From NCBI GenBank assembly GCA_934162685.1, contig CAKPJO010000001.1:30602-94601 (forward strand): a stretch of 64,000 nt of DNA, given 5' to 3'. A model generated the notes under the pieces. That model worked only from the letters and a program-made list of their open reading frames with translations, was not told the origin of the DNA and did not search any database. Each line of letters begins with the position of its first letter. Positions within the stretch are counted from its first letter, which is position 1. This DNA is from an uncultured Bacilli bacterium (GTDB lineage: Bacteria; Bacillota_I; Bacilli_A; RFN20; CAG-826). Positions 7,928 through 60,299 of the stretch are shown in pieces. The position numbers and the translations under genes are program-made.

Positions 7928-7944
7928 AGAAAGGAAACAACATT

Positions 7945-8316
7945 ATGAAAAAAGAAGAATTATTTAAAGCGGAAACATTTGATTATATTTGTAAACTAAT
8001 TAAAGAAAAATTAACAAAATCTATGAAAGGTAATAAACAAGTAAGTATTTTAGAAATCAAAGCATATAATTTATCAACAAAATCCAATGATTTTGAAAAA
8101 GAATTACAAATTAAATTTTCTATAAATCTAAATCCAGAAATTTTTTGTTCAATGGTATATATTGATGCTGTTTGGTACTATGATTTATTTGATGCAAAAG
8201 AATTTGCTTCAATTGTTGCGAGCAATGTTTTAAAAAAATCAGTTAAAAATATAAGCATTGCTGAAAAAGACAACGATAGTAATATATTTAGTGTTTATAC
8301 ACGAAATGATAAATAA
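7945..8316 (+). CDS. hypothetical protein
   Basis: RBS AAGGAAAC 8 nt upstream. Confidence 0.5.
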   Translation: MKKEELFKAETFDYICKLIKEKLTKSMKGNKQVSILEIKAYNLSTKSNDFEKELQIKFSINLNPEIFCSMVYIDAVWYYDLFDAKEFASIVASNVLKKSVKNISIAEKDNDSNIFSVYTRNDK

Positions 8317-8339
8317 ATAGAAAAACGAGGTTACATATT

Positions 8340-8546
8340 ATGAATAGAAAAAGTATATTATTAATTAGCTTAACAATTATTGCTATGCTAGGTATAGTTG
8401 TAGGAATTGCATTTATTTGTAGTAAATTCATCATCCGTCCATACAATACCATTGTTACTATGATTTTAAGTTATTTAACAGGATCTTGCGGGAACGCGGT
8501 TATTAATTATATTCTTGAGAAAGAAGGTTGTCAAAATGAAGAATAA
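8340..8546 (+). CDS. small membrane protein (paralog A)
   Basis: Two TM helices. Paralogous to 8515..8736 (SILLIxLTI...GNxVxNxIxxKEG). Confidence 0.5.
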   Translation: MNRKSILLISLTIIAMLGIVVGIAFICSKFIIRPYNTIVTMILSYLTGSCGNAVINYILEKEGCQNEE

Positions 8547-8736
8547 AAGAAGTATTTTATTGATTATCTTAACAATTGTAGTTATGTTTCTATTAGGAGC
8601 ATTAATTGTATGGGGAAGTTGTTCTATTCTTCTTTACCCTTGGAATGTTATATCAACTATGTGTTTAAGTCTTGTTGTTGGTTTAGCAGGTAATAGAGTG
8701 CTAAATATTATTATTGATAAAGAAGGGAAAAACTAA
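8515..8736 (+). CDS. small membrane protein (paralog B, tandem duplicate)
   Basis: Same architecture as 8340..8546; start overlaps the previous gene. Confidence 0.5.
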   Translation: MRKKVVKMKNKRSILLIILTIVVMFLLGALIVWGSCSILLYPWNVISTMCLSLVVGLAGNRVLNIIIDKEGKN

Positions 8737-8737
8737 A

Positions 8738-9010
8738 ATGATACATAAAAAGGAAAAAGAAGAAATTGAAAATTTGTTAGAAGATACCTTTGTTGGCAGT
8801 TCTGACGCATTAGAATGGTTATCTGAAAAAGGATTTGTTGAAGCTGACAAATGTTATTATTATTGCTATTCTGATAAAAATGGTAATTACATTGGTAATG
8901 ATAGTGATGATGATCCTTATGACATATTAGAAATACTTTTAAAAGATATTGATTATGATGAATTTATGACAAAATTTAATGAAGAATTCGGAGATGAAGA
9001 TAATGGATAA
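8738..9010 (+). CDS. acidic hypothetical protein
   Basis: ATG at 8738 with AAGGGA RBS. The ORF-track start 8714 is less likely. Confidence 0.45.
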   Translation: MIHKKEKEEIENLLEDTFVGSSDALEWLSEKGFVEADKCYYYCYSDKNGNYIGNDSDDDPYDILEILLKDIDYDEFMTKFNEEFGDEDNG

Positions 9011-9245
9011 TATAAATTGGAAAGAAAAATATATGGATGAACATATTAAAGTTCAAGATTTAGAGTCTAAAGTTGATGTTTATGAAAATATTACAATTCC
9101 TAGATTGAAAAAAGAAAAAATAAAAGTATTAAAAAAAGTTGTAAAGCAATTAAAAGAATGTACATCATTCTTTATGACGGTTGATGAATCCGATGTAGAT
9201 GATGTGATTGAATATTGTGAGAGTATTATAGAAAAGGGAGAATAA
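8979..9245 (+). CDS. hypothetical protein
   Basis: Overlaps the previous stop; the start may be the internal ATG at 9003. Confidence 0.4.
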   Translation: MKNSEMKIMDNINWKEKYMDEHIKVQDLESKVDVYENITIPRLKKEKIKVLKKVVKQLKECTSFFMTVDESDVDDVIEYCESIIEKGE

Positions 9246-9248
9246 ATT

Positions 9249-9422
9249 ATGAAAAATATTATAGTATATACAACAGTATATCATAAAAACTTTATTAAAG
9301 TTGAAGATGATGTTTATGAAGACGAAGATAAACTTCAAGAAAAAGCTAGAGAAATTGCTAATAAAATTGCAGGCAATAATGATTATGATTATGAATATGA
9401 ATTAGATGAAGAAGAAGAATAA
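9249..9422 (+). CDS. small acidic hypothetical protein (57 aa)
   Basis: RBS GGGAGAATAAATT-ATG. Below the ORF-track cutoff. Confidence 0.4.
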   Translation: MKNIIVYTTVYHKNFIKVEDDVYEDEDKLQEKAREIANKIAGNNDYDYEYELDEEEE

Positions 9423-9425
9423 GAG

Positions 9426-9620
9426 GTGATAGAAATGAACAAATGTGATTTTTGTAATTACTATGACCCATTTCAAAATAAATGTGGCTGTGCTTATTCT
9501 CCTAAAAATTGTACAGAAGCTATTAAAGCTTACTCACAAGTATTAATGAGTCAAAACAAGAATACTAAAACTAAAAACGTTAATATTAATAAAAACAATA
9601 ATAAAACGAAAGGAAAATAG
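9426..9620 (+). CDS. small Cys-rich protein (CDFCNYY...CGC...C)
   Basis: RBS GAGGTG; Cys cluster suggests metal binding. Confidence 0.45.
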   Translation: MIEMNKCDFCNYYDPFQNKCGCAYSPKNCTEAIKAYSQVLMSQNKNTKTKNVNINKNNNKTKGK

Positions 9621-9622
9621 TC

Positions 9623-10183
9623 ATGAGTAAAATAAAAATTGATCAATATACAAAAATGTTATTAGATGACATCATTTTACAAAGTAAGAAAGATGACGAT
9701 CCTGTTAAAAGCTTTTGTTTAGAATTTGTGTTTTATAATCAAGAAGAATGCTGGATTACTACAACCTATCAAAGTGGAAAAATAGACGAGGAAAAATATT
9801 TGGACAAGACTATGAACCAATTGGCTCTAGATCAATGTCCACTCGAAGGAAATCATATTGTTCTTCCAGCTGATTATGAGAGTGTTATCGATCCAAACAT
9901 TGTTGAAAATTTTCCAGGCTGGTCGAAAACGTATACGTTAGATTTAAGTAATATAGGAATTTTAACTGATAAAGAAAAAGAATATTTAAAAGCTGTAATT
10001 GAACCATATAGATTACTGGTCTCAGATATAAGTAAAATAGTTGGTTGGAATCATGATCCAGAACAAATTTTTGTTTATTTAGATTGTGGAGATCCAATTA
10101 CCTTTCCAATCATTTTACCAGAATTAAAATTTTCAGGAATGGAATTAAATAAGAATTATACTTTAGAAGATTTAGGAATATAA
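9623..10183 (+). CDS. hypothetical protein
   Basis: Coupled start (ATAGTCATG). Confidence 0.5.
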   Translation: MSKIKIDQYTKMLLDDIILQSKKDDDPVKSFCLEFVFYNQEECWITTTYQSGKIDEEKYLDKTMNQLALDQCPLEGNHIVLPADYESVIDPNIVENFPGWSKTYTLDLSNIGILTDKEKEYLKAVIEPYRLLVSDISKIVGWNHDPEQIFVYLDCGDPITFPIILPELKFSGMELNKNYTLEDLGI

Positions 10184-10196
10184 AGGAGAAAAGAAA

Positions 10197-11081
10197 ATGA
10201 AAATTAGTAATAAAACTTATAATGTATGTAGTCACTTTATACATTTATTTGAATCATTTGATTATAAAATAGGAAGTATTATTCTACGTAGGAATGAAGA
10301 CAGAGAAACAAATTTTTATGAAATTAGTTTATCTTTTTCGGGCAAAGATAATTCTAATAAACAATTTCAAACATCTGTATCAATGATTGATGAGGAAATG
10401 CATACAATATTATGTAAAAGGAGCAGAGACTTTTTGATATGTGATGATGTAAAAAGTTTACGTTTTCATTTTAATAATGTCCCATCTTTGTCTGATATTG
10501 AGAAGTATCTTTTAACACAGCTCTTTAATTATTATCATATAACAGAGGGAACGATTATGAAAAAAAGTAATCATCTTATCATTAAAACTAAAAATCCTTT
10601 TGAAGGAATAGAAACTGACATTGAAATAAATTTGTCTTTAAAGCCATTAAAAGACAATAATTTTAAAGAGCTGGAAGAAGAATATGAATATTTTATTGAG
10701 GATTTAGATTTAGGAGAAGATACAAGAAAAGCAGCATTGTTAAATCAAACGTTGTCAGCGTGCGATTGTATTTATCAAAATGGAAGAGTTCTCTATAAAG
10801 GCAATTTTAAAATTTCATTTAGTGAATTTTTAGATAAAGATAATGTTTTTATTCATTGTAAAACAAGAGATGACTTTGATTTCCTTATGGATAAATTAAT
10901 GGAAGCAACTCCTGGTAATATATTCTATAATGTTAATAAAGGCATCGAGGGTGTTTGGTATGATTATGGTGAAGATAGCTGTGTTAAAAATGATGGAACA
11001 GGGATGAAATACGAATATTGCAAAGCTTCAAAAAACAATTATGCTATTTATGAATTTGACGAATTAGATTTTAGTAAATAA
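10197..11081 (+). CDS. hypothetical protein with a C-terminal (A)IHCxT...YEFDELDF domain (family member 1)
   Basis: RBS AAGGAG. C-terminal ~90 aa is similar to 11098, 11395 and the 25823 C-terminus. Confidence 0.55.
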   Translation: MKISNKTYNVCSHFIHLFESFDYKIGSIILRRNEDRETNFYEISLSFSGKDNSNKQFQTSVSMIDEEMHTILCKRSRDFLICDDVKSLRFHFNNVPSLSDIEKYLLTQLFNYYHITEGTIMKKSNHLIIKTKNPFEGIETDIEINLSLKPLKDNNFKELEEEYEYFIEDLDLGEDTRKAALLNQTLSACDCIYQNGRVLYKGNFKISFSEFLDKDNVFIHCKTRDDFDFLMDKLMEATPGNIFYNVNKGIEGVWYDYGEDSCVKNDGTGMKYEYCKASKNNYAIYEFDELDFSK

Positions 11082-11097
11082 TAAGGGCAATAAAAAT

Positions 11098-11379
11098 ATG
11101 AAAATTAAATTAACTGAATTTTGGAATAGTAAAGAAAATCTTGCTATTCATTGCAATACGAAAGAAAAAGCAAATGAATTATTAAAAGCTTTTGATAGGC
11201 TTGGTAAGAAATGGAGTAATGGTATGAGTTATTTGGATGTTGATTATTATACTCTTGATTATGGTCTTTACTATAGGAACACTTGTTATTCAAATCATAA
11301 TAAATTTCATGGATATTCAAATTATAAATCACATGACTATACAATTTATGAATTCGAAGATGTTGATTTAAAAAATTAA
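11098..11379 (+). CDS. small protein of the AIHC(D/N)T...YEF(D/E)DVDL family (member 2)
   Basis: LAIHCNTKEKANELL...LGKKWSNG...TCY...IYEFEDVDL. Confidence 0.55.
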   Translation: MKIKLTEFWNSKENLAIHCNTKEKANELLKAFDRLGKKWSNGMSYLDVDYYTLDYGLYYRNTCYSNHNKFHGYSNYKSHDYTIYEFEDVDLKN

Positions 11380-11394
11380 GAAGGAAAAATCAAA

Positions 11395-11691
11395 ATGGAA
11401 AAATTAAATTCTAAAAAGAAAATTACATTAACAAAATTTTTAGACGATTATGATAGAGATTTGGCTATTCACTGTGATACTGAAATACAGGCAAGAATAT
11501 TACAAAAAACAATTCGTAAATCGCTCAAAAAAAGATGGAATATTAAAATATCTGATCAAAAAGATACTTTTTGTAGATGTTATAAACGAGACACCTGCTA
11601 TGACAATGATAATTGCTGTGGATCTCGTGATTGGTACGAAACGATGGGTTATTTAATCTACGAATTTGATGAAGTTGATTTAGATAAATAA
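11395..11691 (+). CDS. small protein of the AIHCDT...YEFDEVDL family (member 3)
   Basis: LAIHCDTEIQARIL...KKRWN...TCY...IYEFDEVDL. Confidence 0.55.
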   Translation: MEKLNSKKKITLTKFLDDYDRDLAIHCDTEIQARILQKTIRKSLKKRWNIKISDQKDTFCRCYKRDTCYDNDNCCGSRDWYETMGYLIYEFDEVDLDK

Positions 11692-11747
11692 AAGACCTCT
11701 TTTATTTAGTGGAACTTGTGCGTAAAAAGCATAAGTTCTTTTTTTAC

Positions 11748-11790
11748 TTGACATTTACAAATATTTATATATAATTTAAGTAAGTAAGAA
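11748..11790 (+). promoter_or_regulatory. sigma-A type promoter P3 (TTGACA-16-TATAAT)
   Basis: Consensus hexamers upstream of the 11804 ORF, homing endonuclease and dnaE part 2 cassette. Confidence 0.55.
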
Positions 11791-11803
11791 AGGGTGATAT
11801 CAA

Positions 11804-12025
11804 ATGAAAAAGATTATTATTATTTGTAACGACAAAGTTATTTCAGAACACGAAACATCAGATGTATATTATGATGCAATGATGAAAGAATGTGAAAGAC
11901 AACTAAATGAAGGAACTCTAGATAGTAGAGTGTTTGAGTTCAATGAAAAAGAACAAGCTAAAATCACTAAATATATAGTGAACAATCTCATATATAAATT
12001 AATAGATAAGAAAGAAGTTGAATAG
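11804..12025 (+). CDS. hypothetical protein
   Basis: RBS AAAGGGTG. Confidence 0.45.
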   Translation: MKKIIIICNDKVISEHETSDVYYDAMMKECERQLNEGTLDSRVFEFNEKEQAKITKYIVNNLIYKLIDKKEVE

Positions 12026-13031
12026 AATGAATTTTGAAAATAGAGAATATAATAAACCTTCGCAAATTGAATATGAAGGTACTTTAACTAAAAATAGGAA
12101 TCAAAGGCCTACTTGTGACCAAAAGTTTTTAGACTGGTGTGTGGCTAATGCAGAACGTTTTAGCTCTTATTATACTATGGCTAAAGCATTAGGACTTGAT
12201 GGCAGGGCTTTTCAACGTTTAATAGAAGATTATAACATTACATTAACATTTGATAGTAAAGCTGCTCATACTCCTAAATTATATCAAGATTATGACTGGT
12301 TATATAATCAAATTGTTACTTTAAATAAGTCTCGTAAGCAAGTAGCTGAAGAAAATGGCTGGACAGTTAGAGTTTTAGAAAAATGGATGGGCATTTTAGG
12401 AATTAATAGAAGAACATACCAAGATTTAAAACAAATGTCTGATAAGCAAAGAGATTTAATTAAATTCTCATTATTAGGTGACGGATGTGTTTCTGATACA
12501 GGATTTTTTATTGTGTCTCATAGTGAAAAGCAAAAAGATTATTTATATTGGAAATATGAAATGTTGAAAGATCTTTGCTCGCATGAACCGACACGATATG
12601 ATGAGAGTGTTAAAATAATTAACGGAAAAGAAGTTAATTGCGAACCATATTATAGATTTAATACTAGAAAATTAAAGGAATTGTTTAATCTTAGAGAAAT
12701 GCCAATAGAACAAATTGTTAATGATTTAGATGAATTTGGTTTGTCAATTTGGATGTTGGACGATGCTAGCCGAGATGCTTCTTGGAAGTTATGTATAGCC
12801 GCTTATCCTGAAGAAACTAGAACATTTATTGTAAATTATTTTAAGGATAAAGGTTTTTTATCTGCTAAAGTAAGGCTATATGATACAAGATATGTGGAAT
12901 TTAATGCTGACGACAGTAGAAAAATAGATGCTATAATTTTGCGTAACATTCCTCACAATTTAGACATTATACAATATAAAATTATAAATAATAGTAGAAT
13001 TAAATCACCAAGGAGGGGAAATAATGGCTAG
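12018..13031 (+). CDS. free-standing LAGLIDADG homing endonuclease with an N-terminal DNA-binding region
   Basis: Two LAGLIDADG-type motifs (LLGDGCVSD, WMLDDASRD). Located exactly at the junction that splits dnaE; overlaps both neighbours. Confidence 0.7.
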   Translation: MNRMNFENREYNKPSQIEYEGTLTKNRNQRPTCDQKFLDWCVANAERFSSYYTMAKALGLDGRAFQRLIEDYNITLTFDSKAAHTPKLYQDYDWLYNQIVTLNKSRKQVAEENGWTVRVLEKWMGILGINRRTYQDLKQMSDKQRDLIKFSLLGDGCVSDTGFFIVSHSEKQKDYLYWKYEMLKDLCSHEPTRYDESVKIINGKEVNCEPYYRFNTRKLKELFNLREMPIEQIVNDLDEFGLSIWMLDDASRDASWKLCIAAYPEETRTFIVNYFKDKGFLSAKVRLYDTRYVEFNADDSRKIDAIILRNIPHNLDIIQYKIINNSRIKSPRRGNNG

Positions 13032-14583
13032 GCGTCTTTTCCTAGATTATGTCTGGGGAAAATGCATTCAACCACAAGTAGGATACGCCTTTTCTTTGCC
13101 GCACGATATTAGTTATTCTATAGAAGCCGTCCAAGAAGCTAATTTAGCAACAAGATATAACCCTCTTTTTTGGGAATGTGCTTGCCTTTGTATCAACGCA
13201 GGAAATACGGAAACAGGATTTGAAGAAGACGATGATGAAGAGCAAGACGAGGAAGAAAAGAAAACTAAATCAGGAGCACCATCATATGGTAAAATTTCAA
13301 AAGCTTTAACCGATTGTAGGCTTCACGGTGTAAATATTGAATTTCCAAACATTAATACATCTCAAGCAGATTTCGTTCCTGATATTGAAAATAATAGTAT
13401 TTTATATAGTTTAAAGACTGTTACAAATGTGAGCGATGATTTATATTCACAAATCATTCAGAATAGACCTTATTCATCAATAGAAGATTTCTGTTCTAAA
13501 GTATCTGTTACACCAGCACAAATGTCCAGTTTAATTAAAGCTGGTTGCTTCAATTCTTTATATAAGATGTCAAGACGAGCAATTCTCTATGCTTATTTCA
13601 ATTATTTAGCAAATCAAGAAATAATCCTTAAAAAAACATTGAACTTATCTCATTTAAAGAAAGCTTTGTCTCTTGGTGAGAAATTTCCAGGTTATGAAGA
13701 TAAAATTCAATTATTATATTTTAAAGTATACATTGATAAAAATCAAAAATTAGATCCTAGTAAAGAGGCATTCTCACTTAATGCTTTATTAAATAAGAAA
13801 TGTTATAAACTCACGGAAGAATCTTGCATCAGCTTTTTCAATATGAAAGTTGCGCCTTCATTAGATTTAAGAAAAGGTGATTATGATTATTTAGATGGAC
13901 ACACAATATTATTAAAAGCATCAAGCTTTACAAAATTCTATGATGCTCAAATGAAAGAATTAACTGATTATCTAAATTCTGAACAAGGTAAATTAGTATT
14001 TCAAAAAATGGAAAAAGATGCTTTTATAAAAGATCTTATTGAAAAATACGCAGAAGGAACCGAAGCTGACTGGGATATGCAAACAATGAATTTTTATCAA
14101 TCTGAACACGCACTTGCTAGAATGTCCGAAATAAAGTATAACATTAAGAATTTTAATAAATTACCAGAAACGCCTATAACACGTAAGTATATAGGTAAAG
14201 ACGGAGAAGAAAAAGAGACAGCTGAAACTTGTGCAATATGTGGTACAGTTGTAGATGCTAATAATGTTAAACACGTGGTAAGTTTATTAACTAAGTATGG
14301 AGTGGTTAATGTTAAATTATTCTCACAAGCATATTCTAATTTTAGTCAAAAGATAAGTATTGTTGAAGATGCCGCCAAAAAGAAGAAAACAGTTTTAGAC
14401 GACTCTTGGTTTAAAAGAGGAACGAAATTAATTATTCACGGGTTCAGAAGAGAAAATATGTTTGTTGCTAAAACTGAATATGTTAATAAAGTTCCTAAAA
14501 TGGTAGGATTAATAGAAAGTTTAGATACAAACGGAAATGCTTCTATTAGATACACAAGAAAGAAGAAAATTAGTCAAGAATAA
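13024..14583 (+). CDS. dnaE: DNA polymerase III alpha (DnaE-like) C-terminal cistron; fingers/HhH/beta-binding region
   Basis: [32 protein letters not shown] aligns with DnaE [46 protein letters not shown] aligns with GLKILPPDINSG. Continues the alignment where 3721..7479 stops. Confidence 0.75.
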   Translation: [519 protein letters not shown]

Positions 14584-31626: not shown

Positions 31627-32062
31627 TATGTTAGAACCAATTAATAAAAAAAGTAAAGAATGGTTTTTCCTAGAAGTTCAAAGAGAAAGTAAACCAAATA
31701 CAATGTATCAACAAATTCCGTATCACGAAGTTTCTTTTGAAGAATATGTAAATAAATATCAAGCAGTCACGCAAGCACGCTCCAAAGCTCTTGCCTATTG
31801 TGCTGCTCATAACATTCCAGAGTCAGAATGTCCAATCAAATTAACCTATGAGATAGAAACATTTGATGGCTACGTTATATCTACCTGGCGCTATCACGAT
31901 GCCTACACAGATGTGCTCTTAGAACATCGTTACTTATCTAAAGAAACTCGCAGTATTCTTAAAGCACATCGCTCCAAAAAAGAGAAGCGTCAAACAGATA
32001 GTGACACTAACCAACTCGCCGCCGATCCAACAGCCATAGAAGCACAAGGAGGTCTATTCTAA
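31627..32062 (+). CDS. hypothetical protein
   Basis: ATG 31627 with AAAGGAGGG RBS. The ORF-track ATG 31589 lies at or upstream of the predicted transcription start of P11. Confidence 0.45.
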
Positions 32063-32063
32063 A

Positions 32064-32453
32064 ATGTTAATACCGAAAACCTCCCAATCCCTCAAAAACC
32101 CCGATGTCATCGGCATAAAATCGAATAAAAGTAATATTTTATTTAATCTCTGTGTTTCTGATGAGCTTTCAAGCTATATAATTTTAAAACCAGCTCCCCT
32201 AGGAACCATCGGATTATATGAATTTATGCCCATATCTACATTCCTCGTAGTTACGGATAATTCAAATATAACTCAAGTATCAATAGATATGGAGCACGTT
32301 CCTGACATACATACACAGTTATACGTATACCTATATACGTGTATAACATGCAACCCCGCATATGAAGAATTGCTCCCTCTAACGTTACAAGACAAAATTA
32401 TCTTATCTTGTATCAAAGCTATTGCTAGCACAAAAAGAAAGGAAATAAAATAA
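32064..32453 (+). CDS. hypothetical protein (C-rich codon usage)
   Basis: Shares atypical composition with the following sigma gene. Confidence 0.45.
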   Translation: MLIPKTSQSLKNPDVIGIKSNKSNILFNLCVSDELSSYIILKPAPLGTIGLYEFMPISTFLVVTDNSNITQVSIDMEHVPDIHTQLYVYLYTCITCNPAYEELLPLTLQDKIILSCIKAIASTKRKEIK

Positions 32454-32457
32454 GCTT

Positions 32458-33135
32458 ATGTCTAACTCAGCAATACATCAATCAAATAATAAACAACAAA
32501 CCAAACAAACCGCACGTCACCCAAAGCGCGGTCAATATAAAGACTACTCTCAACCGCTCAACGGTATGACCCTCGAACAGTCCAACAAACTTGTCACAGA
32601 TAATATGGCACTCGTCTTCTGGGTCTTAAAAGAGAAATTTCACTTTGATCCTTCCACGATGCAAGATTATGAAGATGTTGTATCTCTCGGAATGCAAGGG
32701 TTAGTCATCGCAGCACGCTGTTATGACTCTTCCACAGGTTATAGTTTTTCAACCTATGCAACACATTGCATCTCCTCTCAAATTCACTCAGAGTATTTCC
32801 GACGTAATCAAACACTCAAAGCAACACCCGAGATAGCCCCCGCTTACCTCGATGCTCCCCTCCCTCTTGAGACAGATCACGGAGCTAAGAAAACACTTCT
32901 TGATCTTCTCCCAGCATCACCTTCTTCAGATCCTTCCTTCACCCAGGACGCCCACACCATAATGGACTTCATAATTAATAATCCCGTCCCCAACAAATCC
33001 ACCCTCCTCTCCTATCTCCAAGGAACCCGCATCATAGACATTGCCAAACAAGAGTCCGTCTCCACCACCTCCATCCAGAACCGCCTTAAAGTTTCTATAT
33101 CTTATCTTCGTTCCATCTTCAACCCTTCTCACTAG
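32458..33135 (+). CDS. sigma-70 family sigma factor (regions 2 and 4)
   Basis: Region 2 LGMQGLVIAARCYD...YSFSTYATHCISSQI resembles sigma-70 region 2.1-2.3 (FSTYA). C-terminal HTH IIDIAKQESVSTTSIQNRLKVSISYLR resembles region 4.2. C-rich codon usage distinct from the surrounding genes. Confidence 0.6.
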   Translation: MSNSAIHQSNNKQQTKQTARHPKRGQYKDYSQPLNGMTLEQSNKLVTDNMALVFWVLKEKFHFDPSTMQDYEDVVSLGMQGLVIAARCYDSSTGYSFSTYATHCISSQIHSEYFRRNQTLKATPEIAPAYLDAPLPLETDHGAKKTLLDLLPASPSSDPSFTQDAHTIMDFIINNPVPNKSTLLSYLQGTRIIDIAKQESVSTTSIQNRLKVSISYLRSIFNPSH

Positions 33136-33165
33136 CCCCCTCCCCAGGGGTTTTTCTTTTTTTAT
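33136..33165 (+). terminator. intrinsic terminator (CCCCTccccAGGGG plus T-run)
   Basis: GC stem followed by TTTTTCTTTTTTT directly after the sigma gene stop. Confidence 0.6.
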
Positions 33166-33550
33166 CCTTCTTTTTACCTCTTTTTACCTTCTGGGGGAAA
33201 CGCGCAGTGAGCCATTGGGTATTGAACTTGTGCAATAGCCATTGGCGAACGATGAGCGCGTGGGGGCAAACGCGTGCCACTCCGAGATGACACACTCTGC
33301 AAGTCTTGAGAGAAAAAATGAAAATTTTTATACTCACACACTTGCGAGAGCTTTTCAACGAAAAGTCGAGGCAAAATTGCTTTACTTTCTTTAAGGGGGA
33401 ATATAAACCGAAGGTTTATATGAAATTCTTTTTACTCTTTTTAATCTTTTCTTTATTTATTTCTTTTCTTTTTAATCAACTTTTTTCTTTTCGTTTTTCT
33501 TTCTTTTCGGTTTTTTCTCATTTTTCTTGGGGGACGGTTCTTTAAAAGCA

Positions 33551-33625
33551 TGCGTGCGTGACGCACGTGTACGTGTATGCACGTATGTGTACATGTACAT
33601 ACATACACACATCACATACACAAAA
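33551..33625. repeat. 75-bp alternating purine-pyrimidine tract ((CA/TG)n and CACGTG-rich, Z-DNA-prone)
   Basis: gtgcgtgacgcacgtgtacgtgtatgcacgtatgtgtacatgtacatacatacacacatcacatacaca. Confidence 0.7.
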
Positions 33626-33642
33626 ACTAATGTGCCATTGTC

Positions 33643-33790
33643 CGCCAGCTTCAAAGCTAACTTCAAAGCTAACTTCAAAGCTTGTTTCAGAACTCTTTAT
33701 AACTCTTTAATGACCACTTACTCAAATTTTTTGATACACTTACTTCAATGTAACTTCAATGAAGCTTTGAACTAACTTCAATGTAACTTA
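33643..33790. repeat. tandem and dispersed short repeats (CTTCAAAGCTAA x3; ACTTCAATG(T/A)A x3)
   Basis: Direct reading of the sequence. Confidence 0.65.
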
Positions 33791-34027
33791 GTAATTTATA
33801 ATTTAACTTAAGTCAGGTTAAAAGTAAAAATATTAAGTTATAATCTTCCTTGAGTTCGCTTCGCTTATTTAATGGCGTAAGTGCTTATGCCCTTCCGCCA
33901 ATCTTCCATTTAAAAGTCTTGCTTCCGCAATCCTTTCAAATCCGCAAAGTGTATTTATTCTTTTTTTGTTTTCTTTTCTGTACTTTGAGTTTATGTAATA
34001 CCCAAAACTACTTAAAATGAAATATTC

Positions 34028-34332
34028 ACTATTTTTTCTCCATTTAATTCAAAGAATCTCAAGTAAAACAAGTTATAACAAGTATTTATTCGTTTTTATT
34101 GAGTTTGTTTTTTTATTCTTGATTTAATTCAAGAAAAAAATAGAAGGTTCTCGTGTACGCGTGTATACATGTATGCGTAACGTGTAAAACTCTTATTTTT
34201 TAGATTTATTAAATACTCTTTAATTTATTTTCCATTTAATTCAAGAAATTAGGTCTAAAGTGGTTTAAAACTAGTATTTATTAGTCTGGAGTGTGTTTGG
34301 TTAGTTTTTATCCATTCAATTCAAGAAAAAAA
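34028..34332. repeat. iteron-like TTCCATTTAATTCAAGAA boxes (4 copies here, a fifth at 36548)
   Basis: Copies at ~34028, 34115 (palindromic TTCTTGAtttaatTCAAGAA), 34229 and 34300. Confidence 0.55.
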
Positions 34333-34803
34333 TTAGTTAAAATTGATTCTGGAGTGTTTTGAGAGTTATACAGGGGCTTTGATTTATATGATTTAAGCGT
34401 TACACTTTGTAACGGTTTGGGTGTAACAGTTTGGTATGTTTTGTTTCACACTTTCGAGGATTACTCGTTTGTTCATTTGGGTATTTAGAGAAAATTTTTA
34501 AGTAGGATTTAAGCAAGATATTAAGTAGGATTTAAGTAGGATGATTGGTATGGTAAAATAAAGGATAAGTGGGAGAGAGGTGGGTCAAAGTGGGATAAAA
34601 TTAGGTGAAAGTGGGAGGTCACGTGTGCGGGCGCGTGCGCGATTTTCTAGGTGTGATATTTGTCACACTTTTGGCTGGGTCAAAGAAGAGAGAAGTCTTC
34701 TTTTTCTCCGATTCTAAGCCACTATTCTACAATTTTTTAGAATGATTCTAAAAATCAACAACTGTTAAAATATCAACAAAATAATTAAAAATGTTGAAAA
34801 AAG

Positions 34804-34854
34804 ATATCGAACACTTTGTTCGGAAACTCAGAAATATCGAACACTTTGTTCGAT
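34804..34854. promoter_or_regulatory. pair of palindromic operator-like sites ATCGAACACTTTGTTCGAT, 31 bp apart, upstream of P12
   Basis: Perfect 8-3-8 palindrome (second copy) and a near-perfect first copy. They lie 45-95 bp upstream of the -35. Confidence 0.55.
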
Positions 34855-34898
34855 TACTCAAAAGACGGTTGCACCAACTTAAAAAAACTCCAAAAAAA

Positions 34899-34940
34899 CT
34901 TGACATTTGATAAAAATCAATTATACTAAATAATGTAAAG
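34899..34940 (+). promoter_or_regulatory. sigma-A type promoter P12 (TTGACA-17-TATACT-AAATAATGTAAAGGAG)
   Basis: Family consensus. Confidence 0.55.
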
Positions 34941-34952
34941 GAGTGTGATAAT

Positions 34953-35273
34953 ATGAAACTACCAGAGACACTAACAGTACCAATGGAAGAGCAAGAGACT
35001 CTGATCAGTTGGAGTAGAAATGATGAAAAGGTAAAGATCTATACATCAGATAATACAGTACTAACAAAACTCAAGAAACTATCAGAAACAGCACCTGATA
35101 AATATAAACTAGTAAGTGTTGTTAATAATCAAGATGGCAGTGCATATTCTGTAACATTTGAAGTGAATAAAAAATGTGTAAGCTTAAGACAAGGAAAAGA
35201 AAGAGAATACACAGAAGAGCAAAAACAAGAAATGTTAGAGAGAATGTCAGCATTAAGAAATAGGAAAGGATAA
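34953..35273 (+). CDS. hypothetical protein
   Basis: RBS AAGGAG. Confidence 0.5.
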   Translation: MKLPETLTVPMEEQETLISWSRNDEKVKIYTSDNTVLTKLKKLSETAPDKYKLVSVVNNQDGSAYSVTFEVNKKCVSLRQGKEREYTEEQKQEMLERMSALRNRKG

Positions 35274-35279
35274 AGACAT

Positions 35280-36125
35280 ATGGGATACGATAAACTATTT
35301 GATGACTGGGATAAAATTAAACATCGAACAGATCATTTTCTAACGTATAATAAAGTAGAGAAAAAATATATAGAAGCATATAAAAAGGAAACGCAGGCAT
35401 GTGACGCACATGTGCCTACACATACACACGTAAATATAAATAAGGATAATATATCCGATATCCAAGAAAATCAGAAGTTCTTAAGTGAGCCATTTGTAAG
35501 ATTCAGAGGCATCGCGAAGAATGACGATGATAAGGGCTGGGTATATGGATATTACTATAAGCAATTATATAGTATAGATGAGAACGGCGCACCTATATAT
35601 AGACATTACATTGTGATGGACTGTGAGAATAAGATGACAGCGTGGATGAAAGGACTGGTAAAAGAACCGTTAAGAAGTCCAGTCTTTGTTGAAGTCATCG
35701 GAGAGACAGTCACGCAATGGACGAAGTGTACAGACATTGAAGGTAATGATATATACGAAGGTGATATCGTCGAGGTGTATGAGTTTGTTAATAATGGCGA
35801 AGGAGAGAATCATAGGCCTGTAAAAAAGAAAGTGTTTGATGGAGTAGCTGCTGTGGGTGAGATAGGTAGAGGCGAAAAGAACGGAGGACCTTGCTTGTTT
35901 GTTGGATGCATTAACGATGCAGCTAGACTGGTCGCTAAGAACTTTAGAGAAGCTGTATATGGATATAAGATCGTGGGTAACTTCTATGAGAATCCAGAGT
36001 GGTATAAAGAAAGAAAAACAGTCATAGATATAGCTGATGAAACGGACGATCGTGACGATGATGATGGCTTTGATGACATCTGGGATAGGGTTGATCCTGA
36101 AGACTGTGGAGATGATGAAGCATAA
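35280..36125 (+). CDS. hypothetical protein with a poly-Asp C-terminal tail
   Basis: GC-richer ORF. Contains a Pu-Py alternating tract in codons ~35393-35425. C-terminus DDRDDDDGFDD. Confidence 0.45.
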   Translation: MGYDKLFDDWDKIKHRTDHFLTYNKVEKKYIEAYKKETQACDAHVPTHTHVNINKDNISDIQENQKFLSEPFVRFRGIAKNDDDKGWVYGYYYKQLYSIDENGAPIYRHYIVMDCENKMTAWMKGLVKEPLRSPVFVEVIGETVTQWTKCTDIEGNDIYEGDIVEVYEFVNNGEGENHRPVKKKVFDGVAAVGEIGRGEKNGGPCLFVGCINDAARLVAKNFREAVYGYKIVGNFYENPEWYKERKTVIDIADETDDRDDDDGFDDIWDRVDPEDCGDDEA

Positions 36126-36343
36126 TGTATTGGTATGATGATGATAACTTCTGGGAGGACAAGAAACCTCCTAAGACATATGATTACCTGCATGATGATA
36201 TAGAGGATCCTGCGGAATATGATGATTGGCTAAGATATATGGCAAGAGGAATCGGATTAAGGTATCCAGATGATGATGATGCGTATAAAGATCATGATGA
36301 ATACGGTGATATAATAATGCCATGGAATGATGATGACGATTAG
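36125..36343 (+). CDS. small highly acidic D/E/Y/W-rich protein (72 aa), DNA-mimic candidate
   Basis: ATGA overlap. About 40% Asp/Glu with interspersed aromatic residues. Confidence 0.45.
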   Translation: MYWYDDDNFWEDKKPPKTYDYLHDDIEDPAEYDDWLRYMARGIGLRYPDDDDAYKDHDEYGDIIMPWNDDDD

Positions 36344-36766
36344 AGAGCGTAAGCCCTCTTTTTGTTTTGTTCTGTGGAATGTTGCAATAGAGTATGATGA
36401 TTCATTTTGCAATTAGATAAATTAAGAATCCAGATGAACTAAATGATCTAGATGCATCTGATGAAGCATCAAGAAAAAGATCTGGCCCTCTGGTAAAAAA
36501 GATCCCCGCCACGCTATAAAAACGTCGCCCCATCAAACATTCAATTTATTTTCCATTTATTTCAAAGAATCTCAAACAGAATCCTTCTCAGGTATAATTT
36601 AAAGGAGCTCACCGTTCTTGTCTGCTATTTAAAGAACTACCTTTAAATAAATCACGTAAAATTAAAAATAACTATATATAAACTCTTAGAAATTCTCAGA
36701 ATCGTTAATTTAATTACTTAATAATTCAAAACAATTAAAAAAAATAAAAAAAGTTTTTAAAACCTA

Positions 36767-36810
36767 TTGACTTATTTTTATATTCCTGTATACTTATTAG
36801 TGTAAAGGGG
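36767..36810 (+). promoter_or_regulatory. sigma-A type promoter P13 (TTGACT-16-TATACT-TATTAGTGTAAAGGGGG) inside the ORF-free island
   Basis: Family consensus; followed by an RBS and a 30-codon ORF. Confidence 0.5.
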
Positions 36811-36828
36811 GAAAGGAAATGAACCTCC

Positions 36829-36924
36829 AAAGTACCCCTTGCAGTTCTTTGAAAAATCAATATCGGTCCATTATCATTTTGGATAAAAAAGAATTCATCA
36901 CAGTGACGACGTCATAAAAAGAAC
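36829..36924 (+). CDS. 30-aa ORF (MNLQSTPCSSLKNQYRSIIILDKKEFITVTTS) with a strong RBS
   Basis: GGGGGAAAGGAAATG. The only credible ORF in 36.35-38.66 kb; may be a leader peptide. Confidence 0.3.
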
Positions 36925-38664
36925 TTAACCCGTCCACTCGTGAAAGATAGTCTGACGATATAAAGTGGGAAAATTGTGGTGGGGATAAAGTAGCGCTCTT
37001 GTCTGGAAATGACATACCTCCATAATTATGCAGTTCGGTATACTCTGGAGCTCTGTGCGAAGCGAGGCGTCGGTACCGTGATGAACTCTTTTAAAAGCTA
37101 GTACGGAACTTAGCCAAATCTCGCTGATACTATTAAAATAACATTTATCATGTTTTCTCCAACCTATATTTAAATGTATCTTATCGGTTAATTTATCATC
37201 ACAGGGAAATTGATGATGCAATGCAATACGCTATTAATTTTAACCAACATAGCACAACTTAGTGAATCCCCAATTCACTTCCCGCACTACTTTCCAAAAG
37301 ATTCATTCAAACCATCCCCTTAACAGGGATGCTACGAGGGCTCTGTTTAGAAGATCCTATAGGAACAGTTATTTATATTAATTTATAAACACCTGAACTT
37401 ATTATGGTCCCTATTTAAATGTGCAAATTTATTAACCCCTTCTTCAGAGCTTTCATAGGATCTTTGTTAGATCCAATTTTAGTTTTCATAAATAGATAAA
37501 GAGGACGCCTGCCTTGAACACACAGGTTTCCTTGAAGAGCAGAGATGGAATCAATCACCACCTTCCTATCGTGTTATAGTTACAGTTATAGTTGTTATGA
37601 TTTCATATTGATCAGTACCCTTTCTATCTCTGCTCCTTAAGGCAACTTGTTTACCTTAGCTCACACCGTATTCACCACTTTTCCTCCTGGTAGTACGGTG
37701 TTTTCGTCGTTATGCTTTTATCTTCGTTTAATAGATTCTTTTTTTATTGACACTGTGTCAGTAATATTCTGTGTCCTTATGTATCCAGATGATTACAAAA
37801 TGCAAGCACCTGATATTCTCTTATTTCTTACTTCTATCTATTTGCTCCAGTAAGTACAATTTTTTAATACTTTGCGGAGCAAAAATTGCACTTCAAATTC
37901 TTTTTTCCTCTGTTCAAGTGCAAAAAAATATCCGCCTCTCGTTGAAAAAAGGTCTGGCCTTATAGCTAATATATGAGCGATTAAGGTTAAAAAAGAGGTT
38001 TATCGCTAATATTTGAGCAGTTTCTCGTCATCGCATAGTATCCCCTGCGGGAGCGCCCTTTAGATCATTTTAATATTACTTTCTGGATCGTTTCTGGTTG
38101 TTATCTACCTCTTTTCTGGATGATGCATCAATGACATAATTCTGGTATAATTATGTAATAATTATATGCTCCGTAACTATATCATTGTAATGATACACTT
38201 TACACTATTCTACTCCATATGCTACACTACCTCCTCTCGTCCATTTCTTTTTTCGCTTATAGACATACACCAGATTTTTCGTGCCTATAAGGCCGAAAAA
38301 AATAGCGGCGCCGCAAAAAAAGTGGCCCTCCAGTAAAAAAAGTGGGGCGCCCGTGTAAAAAGTGCCCGCTCGCATAGTTTCCCCTGGCTGCGTAGTTTTA
38401 CGTCGGTTCATTTCCCTTCGACGGTTATTGCTTGCTTGGGGCTAGTTATAGGATCGCTTGGATTACGGATTTACTTTGCTTGAATAAAAATCAACTACTT
38501 AGACGGCGAGGAATAAAGGAGTGAACCTTTACTTTCGGCCCACTCCAGTCATGCAGCAAAATAAATATACTGCACAGACAATGAAACTTAACATAAGTCC
38601 ATTCATTGTTCACTCACCTCCTTTCCAATATATATTGTAACACATAAACTGTGTAATACAATCA

Positions 38665-39390
38665 TTAGTTTTTACCCACAACTGATAATCTTACCGTTGG
38701 AAAGATAGGACACATCATATCAAAATAATTTGCTGTGTATTCAGAAGATTCTTTTTCTTCATCAGTTAGTCCTATAGCAACTCTTTTTAACATAGAATCT
38801 GGTTTAAAGTCATCTGTGAGAACATCTATATCCACAGGAGTGCCATAGATTTTATTAATTGCATCATAGATTTTATCTTCTCCAAATCGTTCTAAATGTT
38901 CGTAATTAATAGCTAAGTTGCCAAATACTTGTAGCTGAGACACCCAGTTTTCTCTTGCTATAATTTCTTCTAATGGAAGTAAGACGTTGCTAATTGGAAA
39001 TATAGGAAACACTTTCTTACGCTTATCAATACGAGTTAAATCAATTAATAATTGTTGTGCTTCTAAAAGAGCTGATATAATAGATGAATCTTTTAACAAA
39101 GAATTATGACATCCTTCTAATCGATGACTATCTTTTCTTTTTAATGCTCTTATATAAGATCTGGTAATTTGATTTAAATCTCCTTGAATACCTAAAGAAT
39201 GTACACGTTCTAATAAAGCTCCGACGTGAAGGTCTCCATGACCTTGTAAAAAATCATATTCAACTGCAACAAGTTGTTGATCCCAAGTCATGGTATTAAC
39301 ATAATCTTCTGTGATTTCATCATTTAATTTAATGGAGTTATAGACTCTGACAATGTGTGTAATAATTTTGTATCTTAATTCGTTTTTCAT
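38665..39390 (-). CDS. hypothetical protein
   Basis: RBS GGAGGAA. Last gene of the minus block. Confidence 0.55.
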   Translation of the reverse strand: MKNELRYKIITHIVRVYNSIKLNDEITEDYVNTMTWDQQLVAVEYDFLQGHGDLHVGALLERVHSLGIQGDLNQITRSYIRALKRKDSHRLEGCHNSLLKDSSIISALLEAQQLLIDLTRIDKRKKVFPIFPISNVLLPLEEIIARENWVSQLQVFGNLAINYEHLERFGEDKIYDAINKIYGTPVDIDVLTDDFKPDSMLKRVAIGLTDEEKESSEYTANYFDMMCPIFPTVRLSVVGKN

Positions 39391-39410
39391 AATTTTTCCT
39401 CCTAATACTT

Positions 39411-39428
39411 GTTCCTATTTAATTAATA
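39411..39428 (-). promoter_or_regulatory. conserved AAAATTAAATAGGAAC box (minus sense) upstream of 38665..39390
   Basis: Minus-sense reading TGGTATAATgttattaattAAATAGGAACAAG, then RBS. Member of a 9-copy motif family. Confidence 0.5.
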
Positions 39429-39491
39429 ACATTATACCACAAGCGTTATTGAAACACAAGTGGTATAATAATTTTGGTTAATTAATATGAA

Positions 39492-39764
39492 CTACCATTC
39501 ACGATAATATTTTGTGTATGAAGTATTAGGATAAAGCTTAGAATCTTCTGCTTCTTCACATTCGGTAACAGTAATTTCAACGTGATGAGTATGACATCTT
39601 GTTTCATCAGCCATTACTTCATCTACTTTCTGTTTAAGAGCGTTGGATACTTTTGAGAAGTTATCCATAGGTTCTGTTACTCTGAACTCAAGAGTGGGTT
39701 CATTCATTTCATCACAACTAACAATTTTACAACTTCCAATATAAACAATTTTTCTCATTTTCAT
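39492..39764 (-). CDS. hypothetical protein
   Basis: RBS AGGAGGAAA. Confidence 0.5.
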   Translation of the reverse strand: MKMRKIVYIGSCKIVSCDEMNEPTLEFRVTEPMDNFSKVSNALKQKVDEVMADETRCHTHHVEITVTECEEAEDSKLYPNTSYTKYYREW

Positions 39765-58774: not shown

Positions 58775-59904
58775 AATGTTACCTCCAGTAACCGATTCTT
58801 GATATTATCTCCATCGCTTGTGTGGCTTTTTATATTTCACAAGATTTTACGTTTTGAGTTTCAAGGATTACGTTAAACCTAAAGCGCTCATCAGCACGGA
58901 GTCTCGCTCACCTCCGTGGACACAGAGAATTAACTCTGTGTTTCGAAAATAAATAAAAGCTCTTTCTGCGTCGAAGGTACGTAATCCCCTTTCCCGCTCT
59001 CCTGAAAGAAATCTTTATAGTTTATTATAAAACTAATTAGTGTATTAATTGTTTCCGATTAATTGTTTACAACATAACGGCGTCTGAAGTACGCGCTTCT
59101 GCCTGTTCCTATGCTGTTCACTGCGTCCAACTCTGCGTCAACGTCACATTGTTGCCTAGCACTGTCACGTTATATTCTACTAGGACTTTAGGTTTTTTCT
59201 TGAAATGGGTGACCTTAAACCAATACCATAACTAATGTGACTCCGCTCTCCTGAGTTTTCCGCTCTCCTGCTACTATAGCGAGGTAGTTGTAAACTAAGT
59301 GACTATTGAATCCTTCAACAATCACCGTTGTTAATCGGATAATTAACAACTAATAGTTTATACTAGAGCTTAACAAGCTTCCTTGATTGAAGCTTGTTCT
59401 AAGCTCTTAGGAAGATAAAAATCTTCCATACCCTAGAAAACTAATTTAAACTAGAGTTCTCTTAGCCGAGCAAGTGCCTTACTATGTCTTGAATATCTCC
59501 TAATGGAGCCCTAGTCCTTTCATCTAGGGGTTTACTACCGAATTCAGCTATATCTCCATTCCTCAGCCGTTGTGACATGACTTTGTTGTGCCCTCTTACA
59601 ACAAAGCAAGAATCTTGTGATTCTCAACGCTGGTGGGAATGTACCAGTTGCTGTTGATTCACGGTTTAAGTAGGCTCAAACCGTACCTATCCTGCCGCCA
59701 TGCTTCCAAGGTGGGAAGTTTGCATTCTGGCCAGTCGGGAATTGCACCCTAACGCAGGTTTTATATTGAGAGTATTGGAATCATTACTGATTCATGCTCC
59801 GCGAAGGCTCTAGTGCCTTTCGCTAAGGAATATTTGCATCACTGCAAATCCACCTTTTATAAAACACCCTATTGAATAAGGTGTTTTACAAAAAGAGGAT
59901 AGCG

Positions 59905-60144
59905 TTAAGCTATCACCTTTTTTGATATTTTGTGAATTTTCACATTTGTGTGACCACAAGATTCCAATTCACGTTTAACTTTCTCAGCTTGAGCTTTGGA
60001 AGTCAAAACTTCATAAGAAGTTTGTTCAACTCCAGTGCCAAAGGTGTTGAAAGTTATGAAATATAAATATTTCATGAACGAATCCTCCTTTCTATATATT
60101 TCACTTACACACATATTATTATATGTATAAGTCGTAATATACAT
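59905..60144 (-). CDS. hypothetical small protein
   Basis: RBS AAGGAGGATTCGTTCATG. Confidence 0.5.
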   Translation of the reverse strand: MYITTYTYNNMCVSEIYRKEDSFMKYLYFITFNTFGTGVEQTSYEVLTSKAQAEKVKRELESCGHTNVKIHKISKKVIA

Positions 60145-60286: not shown

Positions 60287-60299
60287 TTTTCTCTTTTCC

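Follow-up and report, generated by a model that had tools for sequence, protein, structure and literature searches.

A gene-free 1.8-kb island beside a phage sigma-factor gene: a possible modular control region acting through transcription or RNA

Large gene-free, repeat-dense regions are few among phages, and those that have been studied, the injection stop of T5 and the origin of c2, carry key cis-acting functions. In heteroimmune phages, the operators differ between relatives, their specificity co-evolving with the repressor. Small RNAs of the CsrB/RsmZ type, which serve as protein sponges, display GGA motifs in hairpin loops. The iss region of T5 is situated in the terminal repeat and contains eight precisely arranged DnaA boxes (10.1101/866236). 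The Ceduovirus c2 origin (c2 ori) spans about 0.5 kb between divergent early and late gene blocks and is associated with the PE1-T transcript (PMC7150918). Here we describe a region of comparable character, at positions 33136-34952 of a 64,000-nucleotide stretch of DNA (the window) lying within a phage contig of ~140 kb (ena:ERZ27287164:k141_2689782, 139,469 bp). On its left this island is bounded by the stop codon of a 225-amino-acid (aa) sigma-70-family protein (Pfam Sigma70_r2, PHROG 351); on its right it ends where the gene of a 106-aa protein (PHROG 1709, unknown function) has its start codon. It is a genuine and unusual feature, part of which is under strong selection. No known family to which it belongs was found, and the kind that fits it best is a phage gene-free regulatory or cis-acting region. 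Tentatively, and with somewhat less than even confidence, we read it as a modular non-coding control region that acts mainly through transcription or RNA and is not a replication origin.

The island resembles the T5 iss in being a large untranslated region rich in repeats and palindromes; unlike the iss it has no DnaA boxes, and T5 is a phage of Gram-negative bacteria, unrelated to this large siphovirus-type Firmicutes phage. With c2 ori it shares its non-coding nature and sequence types that differ between close relatives, and it would also share flanking sigma-70-type promoters and, as the presumed active element, a structured untranslated transcript. It differs from c2 ori in its size (1.8 kb) and in its position between co-directional genes near a convergence point.

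The sequence-only reading of this DNA had seen no credible open reading frame (ORF) here, and this is borne out: the longest mechanical ORF in 33136-34952 has 82 aa and a TTG start, and gene callers left the island empty in the source contig and in all assemblies of its relatives. The relatives do not show the region as ordinary coding sequence either. For seven ORF-lets of the island (52-82 aa) and three from a second gap downstream (37647-38411), no Pfam or PHROG match was better than E = 0.006, and none of the small ORFs of the island combines a Shine-Dalgarno site, an ATG start and conservation. A 27-codon GTG ORF at 33207 was rejected, as a stop codon has been acquired in the related lineage L001. 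No transfer RNA or transfer-messenger RNA was found, and Rfam 15 gave no match at gathering thresholds across the whole window. In a permissive Rfam search, mir-466, mir-297 and mir-1277 matched an alternating purine-pyrimidine tract with 24-37 bits against thresholds of 81-90; these matches are composition artefacts of (TG/CA)n sequence.

The phage lineage is rare and known only from metagenomes. Among 5.8 billion proteins, the sigma factor has only two related clusters and the 106-aa protein four; IMG/VR holds one related contig, and a metagenome pattern scan returned one true relative along with 14 chance 20-mers. Two scans of 185,579 GTDB genomes gave no copy of the island, only chance matches in high-GC bacteria, and no prophage copy or host was found in them. 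A DNA similarity search of 50,697 phage records had no match to the island or to the 24 kb around it. The lineages usable for comparison were the L001 group (L001, L003, L004, L005, L010 and L022; ~90% nucleotide identity), sample SRR29133758 (L007 and L008), the most distant lineage L009, in which the 106-aa homologue is 72% identical, and the short promoter-only contigs L027 and L028. The third codon positions of the flanking genes were used as neutral yardstick. Their divergence from L001 is 0.34 in the sigma gene, 0.22 in a YopX-like gene and 0.085 in the 106-aa gene, and from L009 it is 0.32 in the 106-aa gene. Synonymous divergence of neighbouring genes ranges from 6% to 30%, which indicates that the genome is a mosaic.

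Compared across three to six related lineages, the island is itself a mosaic of conserved and drifting segments. Over 33192-33545, divergence is 1.7-2.8% in all three lineage pairs, against 10-34% at the third positions of the sigma gene, and the drop between that gene and block A (33192-33425) is sharp and falls exactly at the gene boundary. Relative to the adjoining third positions, block A is 10-fold less diverged in two of the three pairs and ~4.5-fold in the third, with the same boundaries; judged by these substitution rates, it is strongly constrained. A core at 34390-34482 is constrained as well; it is nearly invariant in four lineages and diverges from L009 by 8.6%, compared with 32% at the third positions of the neighbouring gene. 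Comparison with relatives, suggested earlier as a check on the repeat families, shows conservation of block A, the core, the terminator T2 and the promoter P3; the repeat families and boxes are the least conserved parts.

How these conserved parts might be used is indicated by their pairing. T2 (34613-34648, + strand) is an intrinsic terminator with a 15-pair stem, seven of whose pairs are G·U, followed by a U-run. It folds in the window, in L001 and in L009, is conserved in four lineages, and diverges by 7.9% from L009. On the - strand its G·U pairs are C·A mismatches. The core, also on the + strand, consists of three hairpins (GCGTTACACTTTGTAACGG; GGTGTAACAG...GTTTCACAC; CGAGgattaCTCG), the second of which contains three G·U pairs, and its sole variable patch, of 5 nt, lies in a hairpin loop. 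The G·U pairs of T2 and of core hairpin 2 form only in + strand RNA; those of T2, which have no meaning in duplex DNA, are the best evidence for reading the + strand as RNA. Since the best-conserved parts use such pairs, a function at the RNA level is indicated. T2 is the strand-specific intrinsic terminator expected at the end of a generic terminator-ended small RNA.

Together with a candidate promoter upstream, these elements outline a small-RNA-like or attenuator-like unit at 34343-34648, possibly reaching 34710. The promoter P2 (34343-34372, + strand, TTGATT-18-TATACA) was read directly from the sequence; its TTGATT is kept in four lineages, with -10-like hexamers TATACA, TATACA, TATATT and TGTAAT, and it is a weak candidate because it scores below the scan threshold (9 of 12 matches). 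Between core and terminator lies a C-poor, purine-rich repeat segment (34490-34620, + strand) of TTAAGTAGGAT units followed by AAGTGGGA units, which is 71% purine. Its 131 nt include only 3 C, and they contain 7 GGA motifs, where the average for a stretch of this length in the window is 1.4. It is directly 5' of T2 and overlaps the 5' arm of the terminator. Its copy number differs in every lineage and its divergence is 20-36% (32% relative to L009). The fold of 34520-34660 has less structure than shuffled sequences (z = +0.84), and the repeat segment is predicted to be unstructured. Downstream of T2, the palindrome listing gives a further hairpin followed by a T-run, T3 (34682-34710, + strand, AAAGAAGA/TCTTCTTT); L009 has in its place an 8-bp hairpin of different sequence, AAAAAGAA/TTCTTTTT, so that the shape is kept. 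The candidate RNA (34380-34648) recalls the CsrB/RsmZ type in its variable count of AGGA/GGGA motifs and its intrinsic terminator end, a resemblance to be taken as a lead. It differs from that type in that its GGA motifs lie in an unstructured C-poor stretch and their count is explained by composition, and in having no Rfam match.

The right end of the island carries the best promoter-like site in 32000-39500. This promoter, P3 (34900-34952, + strand, TTGACA-16-TATACT, ribosome-binding site (RBS) AAAGGAG), has 11 of 12 consensus positions and a core invariant in six lineages, and is predicted to drive a three-gene operon starting at 34953. It is preceded by a palindrome GTGTGA-N6-TCACAC (34651-34668), replaced by GTTTCACGTGAAAC in L001, by a palindrome TTTTTAGAATGATTCTAAAAA (34734-34754) whose core AGAATGATTCTAAA is identical in all four lineages, and by two 30-bp repeats found by Tandem Repeats Finder (34804-34863), each with an operator-like palindrome CGAACACTTTGTTCG. 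The latter are lineage-specific: where the window and L001 carry CGAACACTTTGTTCG twice, GACAACTGTC and GACACGTGTC are found in L008, and CAAAACTTTTG occurs three times in L009. Divergence over 34761-34895 amounts to 40-51%, meaning that this segment is effectively replaced between lineages. Exact ACACTTTGT occurs three times in the 64 kb, always in the island (in the two operators and in the first core hairpin). The earlier suggestion of a hub for DNA-binding proteins is therefore supported in this part, where 15-21-bp palindromes upstream of an invariant P3 are exchanged between lineages. By analogy with heteroimmune phages, this exchange is the pattern one would expect of operators co-evolving with a repressor. 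An invariant strong promoter with upstream repeated palindromes that are swapped in close relatives is also what the operator regions of heteroimmune temperate phages look like; unlike in those, a repressor gene was neither found adjacent to the island nor identified.

At the opposite end, the sigma-factor gene is followed by its own intrinsic terminator (33134-33164, + strand), a CCCC/GGGG hairpin and a T-run detected by terminator scan and folding. In L007 the aligned sequence is another one of the type C-run...GGGG, and TTTTTCT again comes after it; on visual inspection it could be a hairpin that has taken the place of the first, though the L007 fold window did not recover it. Three lineage-variable pyrimidine repeats TTTTTACCTC come next (33159-33189, + strand, Tandem Repeats Finder), and the whole of 33136-33191, terminator and TC repeats included, diverges by 16-50% between lineages and is free to vary. 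Block A then comprises five consecutive hairpins or palindromes on the + strand: H1 (33200-33261, containing two copies of GCCATTGG), H2 (33262-33282), H3 (33294-33352, with a promoter-like TTGAGA-17-TATACT across its two arms), H4 (33363-33390) and H5 (33401-33421). Three of a cluster of four GGGGG runs belong to block A as well; these four, out of 12 on the + strand of the 64 kb, fall within 33193-33533. Folding of 33185-33430 gives a minimum free energy (MFE) of -78 kcal/mol; relative to shuffled sequence the + strand has z = -5.3 and the - strand z = -4.2, and the consensus structure has 77 pairs, all of them retained in three lineages. The promoter-like sequence in H3 (P1, 33306-33334) was rejected as a firm promoter, since its hexamers are on opposite arms of the hairpin and both spacer and -10 vary between lineages, and is kept as a possibility.

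Two tracts of unusual composition adjoin block A. The first is a T-rich polypyrimidine tract (33421-33545, + strand), 87% pyrimidine over 104 nt, which is the most strand-asymmetric 100-nt stretch of the window. The second is alternating tract 1 (33548-33625), with 13 + 52 nt of perfect purine-pyrimidine alternation, which can also be drawn as an imperfect long hairpin. The lineages differ in it by 5-10%, through substitutions and one 2-nt deletion in L007, and its fold z-scores are not significant. Because most of the block A helices are perfect DNA palindromes, block A could act as RNA or as DNA. A more unusual reading, to which we give a low probability, is that block A and these tracts form a non-B-DNA phage control element and the neighbouring 270-nt RNA is a phage-made decoy. 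The ~450 near-invariant bp would then join five cruciform-capable palindromes to a triplex-prone polypyrimidine·polypurine tract of ~100 nt and a Z-DNA-prone tract of 65 nt, and this module could sense or absorb supercoiling and so time a transcription or replication switch after infection. The Shine-Dalgarno-like repeats of the RNA would soak up a host RNA-binding protein or ribosomal subunits.

The polypyrimidine tract also contains a 41-codon T-rich ORF (33421-33545), which raises the question of whether block A could be a type I toxin-antitoxin system, in which the hydrophobic 41-aa peptide would have its start codon buried in H5 and its mRNA would be met at the 3' end, over the alternating tract, by an antisense RNA transcribed from the - strand. 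The peptide MKFFLLFLIFSLFISFLFNQLFSFRFSFFSVFSHFSWGTVL has a membrane-like character, GAAGG and ATG are inside a perfect 9-bp hairpin, a terminator-like hairpin is present on the - strand (33567-33553), and a genuine gene for a 25-aa hydrophobic peptide exists 3.6 kb away in the next gap. However, the only two substitutions in the ORF are both non-synonymous, with no synonymous one, the Shine-Dalgarno site is weak, and any T-rich tract encodes Phe, Leu and Ser. The ORF received no gene call, the -10 element of the promoter is degraded in L007, and the putative antisense promoter is in a non-conserved zone. We judge the ORF to be non-coding and such a system highly improbable here.

The analysis establishes the lack of genes, the pattern of conservation, the predicted structures with their strand preference and the exchange of palindromes between lineages. 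From these features we infer that the island is transcribed, that it has binding partners, and that a regulatory logic of the following kind may operate. Transcription of the sigma-factor gene would stop at its own terminator. The near-invariant module of ~430 bp behind it (five hairpins, 87%-pyrimidine tract and 65-nt alternating tract) would work as folded RNA or as non-B DNA, and the repeats and AT-rich boxes that follow would drift at an approximately neutral rate. A weak promoter would then give rise to a small RNA of ~270 nt with a conserved three-hairpin 5' domain, single-stranded C-poor AGGA/GGGA repeats similar to Shine-Dalgarno sequences, and a G·U-rich terminator. This RNA might be a sponge platform for an RNA-binding protein, or the unit might be a regulated terminator ahead of the next operon. 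A repressor on the lineage-specific operator palindromes would gate the strong and invariant sigma-70-type promoter of three early genes.

Several points weigh against a control region acting through transcription or RNA. Block A and the core are nearly invariant and show no covariation, so that the structures modelled for them are not proven; covariation analysis is powerless where the conserved parts do not vary. Most block A helices are perfect DNA palindromes as well, and a DNA-level function fits them equally. The core alone folds no better than shuffled sequences (z = -0.37), and the GGA enrichment of the repeat segment is explained by base composition (7 observed, 5.3 expected from shuffles). 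Both upstream promoters are weak, P1 having a variable spacer and -10 and P2 falling below the scan threshold, and Rfam has no family matching the island. The comparison involves three or four lineages of mosaic phages, whose local identity could partly reflect recent recombination. What gives the locus its interest is a clear purifying selection on ~0.6 kb that belongs to no known RNA family and stands beside a phage sigma factor and an invariant early promoter. Should the conserved blocks be RNAs, they would be new phage regulatory RNAs; should they act as DNA, they would make an unusually explicit selected cluster of Z-DNA-, triplex- and cruciform-prone motifs. In either case 33192-33625 and 34390-34648 are short and precise targets.

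The middle of the island (33649-34333) behaves differently. A fast-evolving repeat zone (33649-33850) with three copies of CTTCAAAGCTAA, four of ACTTCAATGTA and an inverted 50-bp segment leads into it; 33650-33850 diverges by 26-29% from the window sequence, approximately the neutral rate, and the copy number of CTTCAAAGCTAA depends on the lineage. The 50-bp segment (33793-33842) is inverted relative to L001 (11331-11380, a reverse-strand match), with which L008 aligns, and is bounded by the short inverted repeats TAACTTA and TAAGTTA. The inversion has the pattern that would be expected of template switching between short inverted repeats, a mechanism described in PMC8604942. It is followed by a 106-nt structured insert on the - strand (33855-33960), which the window and L001 share (98% identical) and L008 lacks; its fold reaches z = -5.0 and MFE -32.1 on the - strand, against z = -4.2 and MFE -25.4 on the + strand. 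The zone ends in an AT-rich box array on the + strand, made of a duplicated 192-bp unit (34031-34141 and 34223-34333) with two TTCCATTTAATTCAAGAA-like boxes per unit; alternating tract 2 (34152-34179) is situated between the two. Divergence in the box array (33961-34340 zone) is 5-14%, no better than at synonymous sites, and L009 has lost the boxes, its divergence here being 44% where third codon positions have 32%.

Such turnover raises the alternative that the island is mostly non-functional, consisting of decayed genes and slippage repeats, with the apparently conserved blocks resulting from recent recombination between lineages. Three segments (33650-33850, 34491-34620 and 34761-34895) do evolve at or above the neutral rate, the indels, the 50-bp inversion and the presence or absence of the 106-nt segment speak for rapid turnover, the genome is mosaic with synonymous divergence of 6% to 30% in neighbouring genes, and in the neighbouring gap the ORF behind a promoter is frameshifted. 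Against this, block A is ~4.5- to 10-fold below the adjoining third positions with the same boundaries in each pair, and the core and T2 are conserved even though the flanking protein of L009 is only 72% identical. Furthermore, z-scores of -4 to -5 are obtained for the folds of block A and of the 106-nt insert, and no ORF-let has a family match that would mark a decayed gene. We therefore regard a largely non-functional island as very unlikely.

The repeat families described in the sequence-only reading are all there, as shown by Tandem Repeats Finder and motif counts. Tandem Repeats Finder gives CTTCAAAGCTAA x2.8 at 33649-33682 (100% matches), ACTTCAATGTA x4.4 at 33742-33789, TTTAAGTAGGA x4.1 at 34497-34542 and a 21-nt unit with AAGTGGGA x2.4 at 34567-34617; a 30-bp unit x1.9 at 34804-34860 had been missing from the earlier listing. 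Also confirmed were GGGGGAAACGCGC / GGGGGCAAACGCGTGCC and the two copies of GCCATTGG. The TTCCATTTAATTCAAGAA boxes have 5 matches with at most 3 mismatches, all on the + strand (34038, 34118, 34230, 34310 and 36551), against 0.71 in shuffles, and boxes 1-4 are the product of the 192-bp tandem duplication. Box 5 (36552-36573), in the second gap, is identical to box 1 at 21 of 22 positions and, at 36552, is the only island paralogue elsewhere in the window. Perfect palindromes with arms of at least 8 bp number 2.2 per kb in the island and 0.64 per kb window-wide (~3.4-fold). A boxA-like antitermination motif, TTCTTTGAA on the - strand of boxes 1 and 5, was dropped, as the 10-mer TTCTTTGAAA is not significantly enriched (4 matches, 1.4 expected; 9 of 100 shuffles equal it). 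The box spacing of 80/112/80 bp, which comes from the 192-bp duplication, does not agree with the 28-37-nt repeats recurring every ~60-70 nt that a CRISPR array or solitary-repeat anti-CRISPR RNA would lead one to expect.

Two further claims about composition stood in part. Alternating tracts 1 and 2 are non-random: perfect purine-pyrimidine alternation extends over 33548-33560 (13 nt), 33561-33612 (52 nt) and 34152-34179 (28 nt), and the longest run by chance was 17 nt in 20 first-order Markov simulations of the window. The third tract that had been proposed (34619-34645) consists of two runs of 10-11 nt and is the terminator stem. Shorter alternating runs (12-16 nt) are found at 32305-32345 and 35404-35432, inside two fast-evolving genes flanking the sigma-island module, and the one in the YopX-like gene adjoins a 45-nt in-frame indel relative to L001. 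With these flanking genes, 7 of the 14 window runs of at least 12 nt cluster in 32.3-35.4 kb. As for the GC content, said to be clearly higher than in coding DNA, this is true of 33136-33650 (0.396) and not of the rest of the island (0.301); the whole island has 0.328 and the window 0.307. Like the left part of the island, the sigma gene and the second gap have a raised GC (0.34-0.40, ~0.30 elsewhere; 32000-34000 and 36000-39000), and within the sigma gene the GC skew is negative (-0.31), which is atypical. The whole module may therefore have come from another source than the rest of the genome.

Repeats separated by AT-rich spacers had been taken as typical of a replication origin, a partition site or a packaging site, a reading that finds no support in the tests made here: there are no DnaA boxes, and neighbours annotated with Pfam and PHROG include no initiator, ParA/ParB-type or terminase gene adjoining the island. 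An origin might be iteron-type, with an initiator binding short phased repeats beside an AT-rich unwinding zone, or transcription-primed as in the lactococcal phage c2, where replication is started by a structured non-coding transcript; it is the alternative to which we give most weight, and we consider it unlikely. Several repeat families have a phasing of ~10-12 bp, the box array is AT-rich, promoter-like sites (33306 and 34900) occur with stable hairpins, and R-loops could be favoured by the four runs of five G, which lie on the non-template strand. The origins of Ceduovirus phages, too, lack coding sequence, have early promoters on their flanks and rely on the structured non-coding transcript PE1-T (PMC7150918). 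Of an iteron origin one would expect at least three repeats of about 17-22 bp in the same orientation, in helical phase and conserved among relatives; the island offers 8-12-bp repeats at 10-12-bp spacing and 18-bp boxes at 80/112/80 bp, with a variable copy number and with loss of the boxes in L009. On the other hand, TTATCCACA with at most one mismatch has no match in the island, and nowhere in it is conservation lower than in the repeats and boxes. The island adjoins no initiator gene, the replication genes being 16-33 kb off, and the island is between co-directional genes and not between divergent early and late blocks. The cumulative GC skew, proposed earlier as a check, has its window-wide maximum, not a minimum, at 36-37 kb, where the gene arms converge ~2 kb downstream of the island, which is terminus-like; this is weak evidence, since phage skew also tracks gene orientation. 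The nearest cultured relative with a matching replication-arm gene order, TR-TP1, the cultured phage compared in this region, has no comparable gap there, and the island is thus specific to this phage lineage.

A DNA-handling cis site, for instance a pac or cos site, the boundary of a terminal repeat or an injection-stop-type region like the T5 iss, likewise appears improbable. In favour of it, the genome is AT-rich and the GC-rich motifs might serve for recognition or cleavage. One assembly of 142 kb, moreover, stops within the T-rich tract of the island, and that of a second sample breaks at the 12-bp tandem repeats. However, these breaks are at low-complexity or repeat sequence, at differing positions and in low-coverage or short-k assemblies, other assemblies being continuous; in the metagenome collection a locus boundary cannot be relied on to be a contig end. 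There is no terminase gene nearby, the island lacks the DnaA boxes by which the T5 iss is defined, and the strand-specific G·U structures would be left unexplained.

In the window, + strand genes extend from 226 to 36343 and - strand genes from 38665 on, so that the arms converge at 36.3-38.7 kb; both genes flanking the island are on the + strand, and this convergence is the nearest change of orientation. The + arm encodes a primase, a split DNA polymerase with a LAGLIDADG endonuclease ORF, a RecD/exonuclease V helicase, an RNA ligase, ThyX and a CCA-adding enzyme, and the primase, polymerase and helicase genes, at 0.2-17 kb of the window, are the replication genes located 16-33 kb upstream of the island. 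The nearest cultured relatives are distant (~26-33% amino-acid identity for the helicase), and all are large Firmicutes phages: Brevibacillus Sundance, Thomasclavelia TR-TP1/TP2 and SPbeta-like staphylococcal phages. With TR-TP1 the replication-arm gene order is shared. The polymerase is split into an N-terminal part (3721-7479) and a C-terminal part (13024-14583), the whole spanning 3721-14583. Small ORFs (~4.5 kb) and the ORF of the LAGLIDADG-type endonuclease (12018-13031) separate the two parts; no group I or group II intron was found there at Rfam thresholds. The TR-TP1 polymerase is similarly split, with an HNH endonuclease.

Behind P3, the 106-aa gene is followed by those of the YopX-like protein and of a very acidic 72-aa protein (36125-36343), which has Asp-rich runs, ends in DDDD and gave no family match; it could be a DNA mimic or an anti-defence protein. 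Directly after this operon comes the second ORF-free gap (36344-38664, 2.3 kb, GC 0.358). A strong promoter is located there (TTGACT-16-TATACT, 36767-36794) with a leader resembling that of P3, and its transcript is probably non-coding, since the 32-codon ORF behind it is frameshifted in L001. On the - strand of the same gap, at 38529-38606, is an unannotated gene for a 25-aa hydrophobic peptide, MNGLMLSFIVCAVYLFCCMTGVGRK, with the RBS AGGAGG and a promoter-like TACACA-17-TATATT (38655-38627). Across three lineages this ORF has two substitutions, both synonymous and in third positions, and for this reason looks like a real small membrane peptide, possibly type I toxin-like. A third, ORF-poor gap (58775-60300, GC ~0.40), for which there is no Rfam family at threshold, looks like a large structured RNA on the - strand. 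It adjoins a hammerhead type II-like ribozyme candidate (58879-58948, - strand), which scores 25.7 bits against a threshold of 37 (E = 0.0015 for a 151-nt stretch, 0.018 for a 1.8-kb search) and whose stem II is weak or open, with the core motifs CUGAUGA, GAAAC and GUC and two well-formed hairpin stems.

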